Below are positions 41,461 to 46,216 of a stretch of 64,000 bases of DNA, piece after piece; the first letter of the stretch is position 1, and every line of letters begins with the position of its first letter. Origin of the DNA: Longimicrobiales bacterium (GTDB lineage: Bacteria > Gemmatimonadota > Gemmatimonadetes > Longimicrobiales > Gaopeijiaceae). The stretch spans positions 2,400,001 to 2,464,000 of the forward strand of contig OZ250165.1 of NCBI GenBank assembly GCA_965238005.1, given 5' to 3'. The notes beneath the pieces are model-generated. The model was given only the letters and a program-made list of their open reading frames with translations. It was not told where the DNA came from and did not search any database. The position numbers were made by a program, and so were the translations under genes.

Positions 41461-42585
41461 CTACGGGCGCCGGGCCTCCATGAGTGCGATGAACTGATCG
41501 AAAAGGTACCGACTGTCGTGGGGTCCCGGAGCAGCTTCAGGGTGATACTGGACCGCAAACACGGGCCGTTCCCGGTGGACCACGCCCTCCGCGGTTCCGT
41601 CATAGAGATTGACGTGCGTAAGCCGGAGCTCCGGAGCTCCGGGAATCTCGTCCCCTTCTCCCAGGGTCACCGCGAATCCATGGTTCTGGGACGTGATCTC
41701 CACGGTATTCTGGTCGAGATTGCGGACCGGGTGGTTTCCCCCGTGATGACCGAAGGGGAGCTTGTAAGTCCTGGCACCGAAGGCCCGTGCGATGAGCTGG
41801 TGGCCAAGGCAGATTCCGAAGACGGGGGTGTCGTTTTCGGAAAGCCGGAGGATGGCGGCCTCGGCCTTCTCGACAGCTGAAGGATCCCCCGGTCCGTTGG
41901 AGACGAACATCCCGTCGGGGTGCTCGGCGAGAATGTCCTCCACCGACGTATCCGCGGGAATGACCGTCACACGGCAGCCCCCCTCGGCCAGAAGCCGCGG
42001 CGAGTGAGCCTTGACGCCGAAGTCGTAGGCGAGAACGTGGAAGCGCTCCTCGCCCACGGCCTCGACCACGTAGGGGTCGTCCGTGGATACGCCACAGGCC
42101 AGATCGAGACCTTCCATGCGTGGATGCGCAAGCACGCTCTCCAGCAGGGCCTCCTCGTCCGTCTCCGCCGGCGCGATGGCACCGCGCATGGCTCCCTCGG
42201 ATCGGATATGGCGGGTCAGTGCCCTGGTGTCGACCTCTGCGATTCCAACAACGCCGTGGGCCGTCAGATATTCCTCCAGCGAAGCCGTCGCCCGCCACGA
42301 AGAGTGCTGCGGGGGAAGCTCACGAACCACAAACCCGGTGACCTGTGGGCTATCCGACTCCCGGTCTTGGTCGTTCACTCCGTAGTTGCCGATCAGCGGA
42401 TACGTCATGACGACGTGCTGACCAGAATACGACGGATCCGTGAGGATCTCCTGGTAGCCTGTCATGGAGGTGTTGAAGACCACCTCCCCCAGTGAGGGGC
42501 CCGGGGCGCCGACGCGAAAACCGTCGAAGCGCCGGCCGTCCTCGAGGAGCAGGTACACGGGTTCGCGTGGATGAGTGCGAGCCAC
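41461..42585 (-). CDS. carA: Carbamoyl-phosphate synthase small subunit
   Basis: GEVVFNT.MTGYQE..TDPSY, SNGPGDP, GICLGHQ, QYHPEA.PGP.D. Confidence 0.96.
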   Translation of the reverse strand: MARTHPREPVYLLLEDGRRFDGFRVGAPGPSLGEVVFNTSMTGYQEILTDPSYSGQHVVMTYPLIGNYGVNDQDRESDSPQVTGFVVRELPPQHSSWRATASLEEYLTAHGVVGIAEVDTRALTRHIRSEGAMRGAIAPAETDEEALLESVLAHPRMEGLDLACGVSTDDPYVVEAVGEERFHVLAYDFGVKAHSPRLLAEGGCRVTVIPADTSVEDILAEHPDGMFVSNGPGDPSAVEKAEAAILRLSENDTPVFGICLGHQLIARAFGARTYKLPFGHHGGNHPVRNLDQNTVEITSQNHGFAVTLGEGDEIPGAPELRLTHVNLYDGTAEGVVHRERPVFAVQYHPEAAPGPHDSRYLFDQFIALMEARRP

Positions 42586-42797: not shown

Positions 42798-43370
42798 ATG
42801 ACGGAGCCGCCCGAGATCGCCATCTACGCCGACGAGTCGTGCCTCGGCAACCAGTTCAGGACCCGTGCCAACCCTGGAGGCGCCGGAGGTCTCGTCGAGT
42901 ACTGGACAAGTGATGAGTGGGTGCGCCGGGACTACTGGGTCTCCGAGCCGGACACGACCAACAACCGCATGGCCCTTCGAAGCACGATCGAGGGCCTGAC
43001 TCTGCTACGGAAGCGCCGGTGCAGGGTCCACTTCGTCTCGGACAGCCAGTACATCGTGAAGGGGATGAAGGAGTGGCTGAAGGGGTGGAAGGCCCGGGGG
43101 TGGAGACGGAAGGGCGGTGAGATCGGCAACCTGGACCTCTGGAAGGAGCTAGATCGAATCGCCTCAGGGCACGAAGTCCGGTGGAGCTGGATTCGCGGCC
43201 ACGGCGGCCACGCGCAGAACGAGTACGCCAACCACCTGGCCACCCGAGCCGCCAAAGAGGGCACGGCGTCTGGGGGGCTCGTCGAGAGCGGATACCAGGT
43301 CTGGTTGGAAGAGCAGCGCGACAAGCAAGGTCGCTATCTCGATCATTTAGAGAACGCCCCGCCCGAATGA
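42798..43370 (+). CDS. rnhA: Ribonuclease HI
   Basis: IYADESCLGN, TTNNRM, SDSQY, N.DLW, GH.GH..NE. Confidence 0.9.
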   Translation: MTEPPEIAIYADESCLGNQFRTRANPGGAGGLVEYWTSDEWVRRDYWVSEPDTTNNRMALRSTIEGLTLLRKRRCRVHFVSDSQYIVKGMKEWLKGWKARGWRRKGGEIGNLDLWKELDRIASGHEVRWSWIRGHGGHAQNEYANHLATRAAKEGTASGGLVESGYQVWLEEQRDKQGRYLDHLENAPPE

Positions 43371-43421
43371 TCAATCGGTGCACGGAACCGGCTACGAGGC
43401 CTGCAAAAGCAAAACCCTGCC

Positions 43422-43466
43422 AAAAAAAAGGAGCCCCCGGCGCGGCAAGCCGCTTCGAGGGCTCCT
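43422..43466 (-). terminator. Intrinsic terminator
   Basis: Minus strand GGAGCCC...GGGCTCC followed by T8. Confidence 0.85.
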
Positions 43467-43770
43467 ATTTCGTTGGTAGAAGCTTCGTCTCGCTTGGAGT
43501 CCTACCCACCTTCCGGCTCGCCTTACGGCTCGCCTTCTGTCGGGCAGCTGACTCAGCTTCCCTTGTCCCGTTGTCGCGCGGTCAGCAACTTCGGGTCCTC
43601 CGAGCTCCGGAGGGTTCAGCGGAGACCAACGACTCCTCCGCCGGCTCACCGAGGTCCAATCCTCGACTCGCTTCCACCGCTACGACGTCCCGTCCGGTGA
43701 ATCACGTTTCGCGATCCGCATGAAGGGATGACCAACGCCATCGAATCAGCGTGCCACACCGGAAACGCAC
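43422..43770 (-). ncRNA. Candidate ~350-nt structured non-coding RNA of unknown family
   Basis: Bracketed by a promoter and terminator; dense hairpins; no credible ORF. Confidence 0.6.
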
Positions 43771-43774
43771 CTAC

Positions 43775-43803
43775 AGTATGGGCGGGCTCCTCCCTCGCGT
43801 CAA
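43775..43803 (-). promoter_or_regulatory. Sigma70-like promoter of the candidate ncRNA
   Basis: TTGACG-N17-CATACT, with AT-rich sequence further upstream. Confidence 0.6.
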
Positions 43804-44000
43804 GCTTCTAGAGCGTCGTCCGCGGCAAAACATATATTATCCCCCAACCAATTGTCAATCATAGTGTTACGCGATCGTGGAGATCGGTTTCGACCCCTCC
43901 GACGGAGGCCCGTAAACAGATTGGTTTTTCTCGCTCACACAGGGAAAGACGGGCGAGATCCGCGTTTGGGGTTCCGAAACAATAAGCCCCTTGAACGACC

Positions 44001-44714
44001 TCAGACCGCCTCTGAGGTAGGCTCATTTGTTGGCCCGCCAACACCAATATCGCGCTCAAACGCACTTGCGAAGGACTCGCGGACGACGGGGATGACCTCT
44101 GCGACTCCGATGGGCCGGGCGAGCTCTCTGGAGAGCGACGTCACCGAGCGGTCCGCGATGCCACACGGAACGATCGTCTGGTAGTAGGAGAGGTCGCTGT
44201 CGACGTTCAGCGCGAAGCCGTGGGAGGTGATCCAACCGCTGGACACACGGACGCCGATGGCCGCGATCTTTCGATCCTCCACCCAAACGCCCGTCAACCC
44301 CGGTACCGTTTCCCCCCGGACCCCCAGCTCCTCCAAGGCGGCGATGAGCATAGTCTCGAGGTCTCTCAAATAGCCGAGCAGATCCTGGCGATCGGGCTTG
44401 AGGTCCAGGATGGGGTAGCCCACGAGTTGGCCCGGACCGTGGTAGGTAACGTCACCTCCCCGCCCCGCTTCGAAGAGCTCGAGGCCGAGCTGAGTTCTGC
44501 GTGCGTCGTCGGCCAGCACGTGCTCGAGATTCGATCCTGTGCCGAGGGTGATGACGTGGGGATGCTCCAGGAGGAGGAGCTGGTCCGGTACCTCACCGGC
44601 ACGCCGACGCGCTACCAGATCCTCCTGGAGCTCCAGGGCCTCCCCGTACGGGACGAGGCCAAGGCTCTGTACCTCCAGCTCTGCCGAGTCACTCGAATAC
44701 GGAGGGTCCGACAC
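44001..44714 (-). CDS. lipB: Lipoyl(octanoyl) transferase
   Basis: LEHP.V.TLG, RGG.VTYHGPGQLVGYP, KIAAIG, HGFALN, PCG. Confidence 0.95.
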   Translation of the reverse strand: MSDPPYSSDSAELEVQSLGLVPYGEALELQEDLVARRRAGEVPDQLLLLEHPHVITLGTGSNLEHVLADDARRTQLGLELFEAGRGGDVTYHGPGQLVGYPILDLKPDRQDLLGYLRDLETMLIAALEELGVRGETVPGLTGVWVEDRKIAAIGVRVSSGWITSHGFALNVDSDLSYYQTIVPCGIADRSVTSLSRELARPIGVAEVIPVVRESFASAFERDIGVGGPTNEPTSEAV

Positions 44715-44721
44715 CGGATGT

Positions 44722-44812
44722 TAGTGTCCTGCTTCCAAAGTGGCGCGGCCAGTCGAGGGCACGGTGCATCCGACCCTCTTGGTGGCTCCCGAACTTCGGA
44801 AACGGGACACTA
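44722..44812 (-). mobile_element. MITE family B, internally deleted 91-bp copy
   Basis: Both TIRs present with TA on each side; its end supplies the E2 stop codon. Confidence 0.85.
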
Positions 44813-46216
44813 TGCGTCCTCGGGGAAGTCCTCCAGGAGCGCTTTGAGTCCCGAGAGGAATCTCGCGGCGTCGGCGCCATCCACGATCCGGTGATCGTAC
44901 CCGAGGGAGAAGAGCGACCGCTTCCGGATAGCGATGGCGTCCGTGCCCGTGGCCGGATCCTCCACCACCACAGTCCGCTTCTCGATGGCACCCGTGCCCA
45001 GGATCGCTGCGGTACCCTTCGGGATGACAGGCATCCCGACCAGAGTGCCGAGGACACCCGGGTTCGTGATGGAGAACGTGGCGCCCTGAATCTCCGACGG
45101 GTTGAGCCGCCTGGAGCGCGCCCGCTCGGCAAGGTCAATGATCTTCTTGCCGATGCCAACCAGGCTCAGATCGTCGGCGTCGTGGATCACTGGGACGATG
45201 AGCCCGGGATCGAGATCCACCGCCATACCGATGTTCACGTTGCCGCGGTGGATGATGCTGTTCCCTGACACCGTTCCGTTGACGTTCGGGAAGCTGCGCA
45301 GCAGGCGCGAGCACGCCCACGCCACGAAGGCCGTGTAGCTGACCCTGGCCCCCTGCTCCGCCCACTTGGCCTTGTTCGCAGCCCGGATCCGGTCCACGCG
45401 CGAGAAGTCGATCTCGATGAACGAGTGCACATGGGGTGCCACCCGCTTCGCCAGAACCATGTGCTTCGCCGTGAGCCGACGGATCTTGTCCATGGGCTCC
45501 ACCTGGTCGCCCTCGCGGACCGGGAACTCGGGGTGCTGCACCTCCCCGTAGAAGGCGGTCCAGAGGTCGGACGGAGCTGCTGCCGCCGCCGGTTGCGCGG
45601 CGGGTGCCGGAGCGGCCGGCTGCGCGACGGCCGGAGCTGGTTCGGTGGACGGAGCGACCGTAGGCTGCGCCGCAGCTCCGCCGCCCTCAATGAAGCTCAG
45701 GATGTCCTGCTTGGTGACCCGGCCGGCGTGGCCCGTGCCCGGCACGTCACGGATGGCGATTCCGTGCTCCTCGGCGATGCGCCTGACCACCGGAGTGGAC
45801 TTCGTCCGCAAGCGGTCCTCCGCCAACTGGGGGGCCCCGTCTTCGGACGGAGCCGGAGCACTCGGAGGAGGTGCGGGCTCAGCATCCGGCGCCGGTGTTT
45901 GCTCATCGGCAATGGGTGGTACCGCTGGAGCCGTTTCGGCCATCTCGGCTGGTTCGGCTACGGCCGGAGCACCACCCTCCGTGTCGATGAACGCTACGAT
46001 CGTGCCCACCTCGACCGTCTCCCCCTCCTGGATCCTGACCTCCACCAGGGTCCCCGACTGCGGGGAGGGGATCTCGGCGTCCACCTTGTCGGTGGAGATC
46101 TCCAGGATCGGCTCGTCTCGCTCGACCTTGTCCCCGACCTGCTTCAGCCACTTCGATACCGTGCCCTCGGCGATGGACTCACCCATCTGGGGCATGGGAA
46201 CCTCGATGCGGGCCAC
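44810..46216 (-). CDS. 2-oxoacid dehydrogenase E2 (dihydrolipoamide acyltransferase)
   Basis: Lipoyl domain STDKV, E3-binding domain, catalytic DHRIVDG. Confidence 0.93.
   Translation of the reverse strand: MARIEVPMPQMGESIAEGTVSKWLKQVGDKVERDEPILEISTDKVDAEIPSPQSGTLVEVRIQEGETVEVGTIVAFIDTEGGAPAVAEPAEMAETAPAVPPIADEQTPAPDAEPAPPPSAPAPSEDGAPQLAEDRLRTKSTPVVRRIAEEHGIAIRDVPGTGHAGRVTKQDILSFIEGGGAAAQPTVAPSTEPAPAVAQPAAPAPAAQPAAAAAPSDLWTAFYGEVQHPEFPVREGDQVEPMDKIRRLTAKHMVLAKRVAPHVHSFIEIDFSRVDRIRAANKAKWAEQGARVSYTAFVAWACSRLLRSFPNVNGTVSGNSIIHRGNVNIGMAVDLDPGLIVPVIHDADDLSLVGIGKKIIDLAERARSRRLNPSEIQGATFSITNPGVLGTLVGMPVIPKGTAAILGTGAIEKRTVVVEDPATGTDAIAIRKRSLFSLGYDHRIVDGADAARFLSGLKALLEDFPEDA

Follow-up and report, generated by a model that had tools for sequence, protein, structure and literature searches.

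What occupies the gap between the convergent genes rnhA and lipB in the genome of a Longimicrobiales bacterium (phylum Gemmatimonadota) is the question raised by a 64,000-nucleotide (nt) stretch of contig OZ250165.1 (positions 2,400,001 to 2,464,000; hereafter the window, numbered from its first letter). An initial annotation, made from the letters alone, had placed a structured RNA gene of no recognisable family there. We found the gap to be real (rnhA, 42798-43370 on the plus strand; lipB, 44001-44714 on the minus strand), and its minus strand carries, from 43422 to ~43768, an RNA gene of ~345 nt without a conserved open reading frame (ORF). Our reading, to which we give a probability of about 0.88, is that this is a free-standing, single-copy noncoding RNA (ncRNA) gene with a sigma-70-like promoter and an intrinsic terminator, whose family is absent from Rfam 15 and was found here only in Gemmatimonadota, and whose product folds into at least 13 helices braced by three long-range pairings. 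The gap, the minus-strand promoter, the stretch after it with no credible ORF (~350 nt as first described) and the closing hairpin with T8 had all been described by the initial annotation and were all confirmed.

Covariation, fold and predicted transcript boundaries

The RNA has homologues in related genomes, and their stems carry compensatory changes, which agrees with the lineage-specific structured RNA first proposed. We compared the structure with three alignments: 70 core sequences fitted to a covariance model, 53 short-form sequences aligned by plain MAFFT, and the 15 closest long-form sequences. Controls in which pairing partners were slid by one to three columns keep the relatedness of the sequences, while shuffles ignore it and hence do not give probabilities. 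The paired fraction was about twice that of the slid controls across the alignments. Over the core, 90.9% of cells were paired against 38.6-48.7% after sliding, in a model-fitted alignment that leans towards its model; all 34 pairs had changed on both sides, and the covariation score was 0.564 (slid, 0.083-0.115). For the full structure with its pseudoknots (90 pairs), the 53-sequence MAFFT alignment gave 79.3% paired cells (slid, 36-46%), a score of 0.333 (slid, at most 0.131) and 82 pairs changed on both sides. The structure of the window's own RNA was paired in 93.1% of cells among the 15 long-form sequences (slid, 38-46%), with 33 of its 86 pairs changed on both sides. The minimum free energy (MFE) fold of a 354-nt stretch also stood apart from its shuffles (-162.7 against -142.75 +/- 5.87 kcal/mol; z = -3.4), none of 100 reaching it. 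A structure that RNAalifold drew from the first, 12-sequence MAFFT alignment was rejected as partial and partly wrong, with one spurious long-range stem.

Most individual helices (Table 1) show the same pattern. In the 70-sequence alignment, P4 and P5 together were 95.8% paired with nine of nine pairs changed on both sides, P6 82.2% with six of six covarying, P7 93.2% with eight of eight, the outer four pairs of P8 96.4% with all covarying, and P10 96.2% with five of five. Within the 5' domain, P1 reached 73.5% with all 11 pairs changed on both sides, and P2 81.6% with five of five covarying, in the 53-sequence set; the 15 close relatives gave 85.9% for P1, 71.1% for P2 and 100% for P3, besides 98.5% for P4 and P5 and 100% for P7. 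The same 15 sequences gave 90.4% for P9, 94.4% for P11, 96.1% for P12 (its short-form equivalent being 92% paired, six of six covarying, in the 53 sequences) and 97.8% for the GNRA hairpin. In the diverse set of 53 sequences, MAFFT misaligned P7, P9 and P11 and left them 50-54% paired (P9, poorly aligned, 52%); P7 is well supported in the model-based alignment, and support for P9 and P11 is confined to the 15 close relatives.

The stems of the initial annotation fared unevenly. Those corresponding to P6, P7, P8 and the GNRA hairpin are conserved helices. Its closure of the 5' domain, paired in 67.7% of cells and mostly mismatched at two positions, had to be given up; the same nucleotides form P1 and P4 (76.5% and 87.3% paired, several pair types each, rich covariation). 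The stem it named last overlaps the 3' strand of the first pseudoknot below, and P12 takes its place in relatives. Its direct repeat is present in this genome and is not kept as a repeat in relatives, even those of the same genus.

Three long-range pairings with covariation support lock these helices into a compact body. Pseudoknot A (PK-A) joins the P7 loop to the 3' tail (97.5% paired, four of six pairs changed on both sides in the 53 sequences; 100% in the 15), and PK-B joins the P6 loop to the 3' domain (94.4%, six of six; 94.7% in the 15). PK-C connects the internal loop of the 5' domain with the P10 loop (78-85%, four of four; 96.7% in the 15); members of another order have a simpler 5' hairpin, whose loop takes this part. 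On reading the alignments we noticed that all three complementarities shift in step between lineages. In an alignment-free test, which agrees with this, we compared loop-partner duplex energies of cognate and non-cognate pairs, and permutations reached the observed value in 0 of 2000 cases for PK-B, 8 of 2000 for PK-C and 26 of 2000 for PK-A, a significant but small effect (cognate median rank, 12-25 of 68). This test is noisy because its target windows are GC-rich and 125 nt long, and we therefore relied on the column counts.

At the 5' end, a promoter scanner called a sigma-70-like site at 43803-43775 on the minus strand (9/12 matches, 17-nt spacer), one of two sites in the region of the RNA where shuffles predict 0.2. 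Transcription would start near 43768, ~7 nt downstream of the -10-like hexamer. The equivalent promoter in relative G011 has 10/12 matches by the sigma-70 scanner. A second, better sigma-70-like site (43829-43858, minus strand; 10/12) lies in the lipB-RNA spacer, 55 nt upstream of the RNA's promoter. An internal sigma-54-like promoter, offered earlier as a weaker alternative, was dropped, its motif not being conserved even within the genus. At the 3' end, relatives' alignments show a hairpin and T-run at the place equivalent to the terminator, for which a terminator scanner returned no site in the region because the hairpin loop is larger than its 3-8-nt limit.

The RNA body and close variants of it were recovered from RNA libraries of several studies. 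Part of the stretch was present in 24 runs from 13 studies, 17 of them on record as RNA, and contigs of four RNA runs from four studies covered 43439-43762 (51, 546, 1010 and 238 contigs), many at 85-99% identity and with no joints. By label, these four include one sponge metagenome and one outdoor metagenome. The flanks (43250-43438 and 43763-44050) had no contigs, which we did not use as evidence for discrete ends, given the filters, the dropping of variants by contigs and the faster divergence of coding flanks.

Table 1. Positions of the RNA's helices, pairing strands and transcription signals, with two nearby genes (window coordinates)
Feature	Position	Strand	Detail or basis
-35-like hexamer of the RNA's own promoter	43798..43803	-	Scanner match
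-10-like hexamer	43775..43780	-	Scanner match
5' domain	43705..43767	-	P1 43767-43758/43715-43705; P2 43751-43749/43719-43717; P3 hairpin 43742-43737/43732-43727
PK-C 5' strand	43754..43757	-	Internal loop of 5' domain; partner is P10 loop 43581-43578
P4 and P5	43675..43699	-	P4 43699-43695/43679-43675 around P5 hairpin 43693-43690/43685-43682 with conserved 4-nt loop
P6 hairpin	43650..43665	-	Loop 43659-43655 is PK-B 5' strand
P7 hairpin	43617..43643	-	Loop 43631-43626 is PK-A 5' strand
P8 hairpin	43597..43613	-	Variable loop
P9 and P10	43567..43595	-	P9 43595-43592/43570-43567 around P10 hairpin 43589-43585/43577-43573; P10 loop 43581-43578 is PK-C 3' strand
3' domain, long form	43479..43560	-	P11 43560-43555/43484-43479; P12 43547-43542/43507-43502; GNRA-capped hairpin 43529-43520; PK-B 3' strand 43498-43494
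PK-A 3' strand	43471..43476	-	Conserved stretch just before terminator
Intrinsic terminator	43422..43466	-	Long G+C-rich hairpin, then T8; MFE fold and sequence
carA	41461-42585	-	Name via syntenic ORFs of relatives
2-oxoacid dehydrogenase E2 gene	44810-46216	-	Name via syntenic ORFs of relatives

Family membership, distribution and loss

At the gathering score, Rfam 15 gave no match in the whole 64-kb window, and ARAGORN called no gene in it. When all 4227 Rfam 15 models were run with permissive filters and E-values up to 10 over 43300-44050, seven matches were returned, all at E of at least 1.1 and all on the terminator hairpin; the RNA body thus had no match, in keeping with the absence of a recognisable family first noted. 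The models of OLE, raiA, ROOL, GOLLD and HEARO (Rfam 15) gave no match to the RNA at E up to 10. The genome, a single contig of 4.84 Mb, has one copy of the stretch, which is not a multi-copy mobile repeat.

BLASTN found the stretch in 13 of 41 related genomes, its own genome counted. A core covariance model of 131 positions built from 12 aligned homologues (R1) matched 87 of 151 genomes of the window's family, 59 of its 81 genera and 62 of 110 high-quality genomes, with one match each except in five assemblies with two. Two core copies on different contigs were seen in six assemblies (G009, G091, G096, G098, G105 and G236, the last on L060 and L068), and such pairs could be true paralogues or mixed strains in metagenome bins. 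In an even sample of the phylum, R1 matched 16 of 151 genomes (family f1, 6/16; f3, 1/1; f5, 8/31), with none in f2 (0/2), f4 (0/72) or seven other families (0/28). A second model built from 70 matches (R2) gave three strong and two weak matches among 31 genomes of f2, and one weak match only (E = 0.0086) among 41 genomes of f4. The RNA therefore occurs in the majority of the Gemmatimonadaceae genera sampled and, within the class, in part of the members of three further families. It was not found in the sister classes or, that one weak R2 match aside, in f4, of which more genomes were sampled than of any other family besides Gemmatimonadaceae.

A motif scan of named genomes supplied organism names for true matches, not a distribution. 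It returned at least 120 loci, the greater part of them chance matches; of 100 that were tested with R1, five passed, labelled Gemmatimonadaceae (three), Gemmatimonadota and Longimicrobiales, the next best having E = 0.009 among the matches listed. By eye, both loci that were read out of the 20 without an R1 test look real, and two loci labelled Longimicrobium, read from the 100, are chance matches in coding sequence, again among the matches listed.

Within Gemmatimonadaceae the gene order E2, lipB, RNA, convergent rnhA and carA is conserved. Gene names in the window were taken from relatives' syntenic ORFs with Pfam matches to CPSase_sm_chain, RNase_H, LplA-B_cat and 2-oxoacid_dh. Of 12 loci from relatives, 11 have a lipB-type ORF upstream of the RNA and on its strand (for the remaining locus, the scan took in only ORFs of at least 140 codons); rnhA lies downstream in nine, two loci stop at contig ends and one genome has carA directly; and carA follows further downstream on the same strand in nine. 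The neighbours at 10 loci of f5 and f3 are unrelated to lipB and rnhA and vary between genera, including short-chain dehydrogenase, CBS-domain proteins, AMP-binding enzymes, HMG-CoA reductase, DNA ligase, M28 peptidase and PaaD. Since the neighbours differ outside Gemmatimonadaceae, the gene is free-standing, and the variety seen in f5 and f3 makes the lipB linkage ordinary synteny rather than a sign of function.

Several results weigh against this reading of the locus. The spread is patchy: 64 of the 151 family genomes have no R1 match, and f4 gave 0 of 72 and then one weak match in 41. Five complete single-contig genomes of the family had no strong R2 match, only two weak ones (E = 0.02 and 0.07); four of them have convergent rnhA almost directly behind lipB, and the fifth has a different ORF there. 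In the same-genus genome G001 (L003:1547-1776), the copy keeps 95% identity as far as the counterpart of window position 43566 and has no equivalent of 43565-43421, a segment that takes in all of the 3' domain, two pseudoknot strands and the terminator; the truncated RNA is followed closely by an insertion of ~100 nt of other sequence, and there is no second copy. Absence from complete genomes and truncation in a congener indicate that the RNA is dispensable, which in turn argues against a core housekeeping role. The scanner called an equivalent promoter in only one of four relatives, the remaining three having weaker look-alikes, seen by eye, that fail its rules. In some alignments the support for helices P2, P9 and P11 is weak. 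Assembled contigs from the RNA libraries show no ends, strand or level, DNA carry-over is possible and expression is poorly reflected by word depth. Finally, no result points to a partner protein, a ligand or an activity, and a protein- or ligand-based mechanism is drawn by analogy only.

The complete genome G007 (L217) has, after lipB and in place of the RNA and rnhA, a long ORF which by eye is RelA/SpoT-type nucleotidyltransferase-like.

Possible roles of the RNA

We regard this molecule as a strong candidate for a functional RNA of a new class. The novelty lies in the RNA family itself; its functional kind may prove to be like a known kind of RNA. We searched open-access full text, with supplements and subscription journals outside that scope, and found no paper on an RNA motif tied to Gemmatimonadota. 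The string Gemmatimon- is absent from the main text of PMC11109978, PMC8632094, PMC4214555 and the 2026 bioRxiv preprints, whose supplementary motif lists could bear on novelty; lipB is absent from the main text of PMC11109978, PMC8632094 and the 2026 bioRxiv preprints, and rnhA from that of PMC11109978 and PMC8632094.

We propose that the RNA would act in trans as a stable, abundant structured RNA, and would be neither a leader nor an untranslated region (UTR) nor an antisense RNA acting by base pairing. Its rigid fold may expose the invariant nucleotides of its loops and junctions to a partner of its own, either a dedicated protein or a small ligand, and the RNA would then form the core of a ribonucleoprotein (RNP), like other large orphan bacterial RNAs. 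It would be non-essential, as some complete genomes are without the gene. By this analogy, a role as an RNP core, or in binding a protein or ligand through the invariant loops and junctions, is the mechanism that we tentatively prefer, though we place it somewhat short of even odds. The wider proposal, towards which we lean by a small measure, is that this is an undescribed class of large, compact, three-pseudoknot RNA, specific to Gemmatimonadota, perhaps among the most abundant non-ribosomal transcripts of these bacteria in nature to judge by its recovery in RNA libraries, and either a new ribozyme or the core of a new RNP machine.

Among known systems, OLE forms an RNP, and ROOL and GOLLD form RNA-only assemblies. 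Together with the raiA motif RNA, these large orphan RNAs are likewise free-standing and several hundred nt long, with many covarying helices and long-range pairings. They also share a patchy, restricted range, dispensability, presence in RNA libraries and a function that cannot be read from the neighbours. The present RNA differs from them in belonging to another phylum, in matching none of their models at E up to 10 and in having no conserved adjoining partner gene.

A ribozyme, in which the three-pseudoknot fold would form an active site and process itself or act on other RNA, is an unlikely possibility suggested by analogy with RNase P RNA, in whose range the complexity falls (~345 nt, at least 13 helices, three covarying long-range pairings, invariant loop and junction nucleotides). 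Against it, no Rfam ribozyme family matches, the contigs from RNA libraries run across most of the body and show no recurrent break or joint, and no substrate or neighbouring gene hints at an activity.

Bacterial RNAs of such size and complexity are rarely found anew, and earlier ones opened new biology. The host phylum is widespread and little studied, comprising soil, water and sponge-associated bacteria. At ~110 kDa and rigidly cross-braced, the RNA is suited to cryo-electron microscopy; its single copy and its natural loss and truncation variants can guide genetics, and cultured relatives exist for deletion or pull-down. A covariance model would take unexplained abundant sequence out of metatranscriptome analyses.

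Known RNAs, neighbouring genes and coding potential

The earlier suggestion of an RNA-polymerase-binding role led us to ask whether this is the lineage's 6S-like RNA, sequestering RNA polymerase. The Rfam 6S model (RF00013) found nothing anywhere in the genome, 43300-44050 included, with E-values allowed up to 10. Among the 121 genomes sampled from the class it left 120 without a match (one weak case, G025), yet it was positive in sister-class families (9 of 17 genomes; f10, 3/11; f11, 3/3; f12, 3/3). Like 6S RNA, the present RNA is an ncRNA with its own promoter and terminator and is present in RNA libraries. However, a model built from six sister-class 6S RNAs found a separate, full-length 150-nt candidate at C1:3974984-3975133 on the minus strand (L228:1501-1650; 36.9 bits, E = 1.5e-5), the fold of which is only modestly better than shuffles (z = -2.1), and the same model matched 16 of 41 relatives. 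For both 6S searches, the f2 counts include a match from G025, an unpublished genome. The RNA between lipB and rnhA is about twice as long as 6S RNA and globular, with many helices and three long-range pairings, rather than a rod with a central bubble; it has no closing stem, its 5' and 3' ends being unpaired with each other, the former held in the local P1 and the latter in a pseudoknot. Moreover, f4, where R1 did not find the RNA, is without an Rfam 6S match too (0/72), so that the distributions of the RNA and of 6S do not complement each other. A divergent 6S RNA of its own is probably present in the lineage, the RNA at the present locus being a further one, and we regard the 6S identity, including the polymerase-binding role, as highly unlikely.

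Equally small is the chance that the RNA belongs to a known family and has diverged so far that Rfam missed it (as a paralogue of RNase P RNA, tmRNA or signal recognition particle (SRP) RNA, or as a known large orphan RNA), or has already been described. Rfam has limited sensitivity here: its 6S model misses the class, and the small SRP RNA at C1:1386954-1387052 scores 37.3 bits, below the Rfam cut-off of 40 bits, which is a further sign that the Rfam models fit this lineage poorly. The literature search was confined to open-access text, in which no RNA motif was tied to the phylum, lipB or rnhA. Nevertheless, no model reached E = 1 on the RNA body even with permissive filters, and the canonical RNAs are all present elsewhere in the genome. 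RNase P RNA lies at C1:3884071-3884453 (265.9 bits, RF00010) and transfer-messenger RNA (tmRNA) at C1:1989784-1990140 (168 bits, RF00023), so that the initial exclusion of both stands. RNase P RNA type A is similar in size and likewise has helices tied by long-range pairings, but its model has no match at the locus of the RNA, where Rfam and ARAGORN also found no tRNA-like ends or tag frame of a tmRNA. Five of the sub-threshold matches to the tmRNA model, clustered within 1.3 kb at C1:4451713-4452981, are probably a run of tRNA genes.

The RNA could instead be a cis element, either the 3' UTR of lipB or a riboswitch-like control of transcripts that read through into rnhA antisense and on to carA. 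Its place in Gemmatimonadaceae is always behind lipB and on the strand of lipB, with the lipB-type ORF and carA at the frequencies given above, and in one genome it stands immediately before carA with no rnhA between; as in riboswitches and cis leaders, its fold is conserved and pseudoknotted and closes with an intrinsic terminator. The unrelated and varied neighbours at the 10 loci of other families tell against this, as do a promoter-like site of its own, a strong, constitutive-looking terminator and the convergent orientation of the next gene in most genomes. Four relatives carry an extra hairpin between the last pseudoknot strand and the terminator and therefore have no compact expression platform. 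Unlike riboswitches, the RNA has no consistent class of same-strand downstream gene (rnhA being convergent in 9 of 12 Gemmatimonadaceae-type loci) and is much larger than known aptamers. We thus find a cis element scarcely probable and keep to the free-standing gene.

Two further explanations deserve practically no weight. A possible protein-sequestering role had been suggested with reference to ~15 GGA trinucleotides; the RNA would then be a sponge of the CsrB/RsmZ type, its GGA motifs titrating a protein of the CsrA family. The genome has no PF02599 match (controls were positive in three genomes), and the fold is a unique, non-repetitive multi-helix one rather than a set of repeated loop motifs, with most G-rich runs inside covarying stems and the conserved loops engaged in long-range pairings. 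A small protein, with coding conservation, might be read from the overlapping open frames (85 amino acids on the minus strand and 180 on the plus strand), but four overlapping frames had no Pfam match, the longest frames change strand, frame and extent between homologues, and the 85-amino-acid frame is outside the three longest in the 95%-identical sequence of the same genus; the stems carry compensatory substitutions, and the insertions and deletions do not come in threes.

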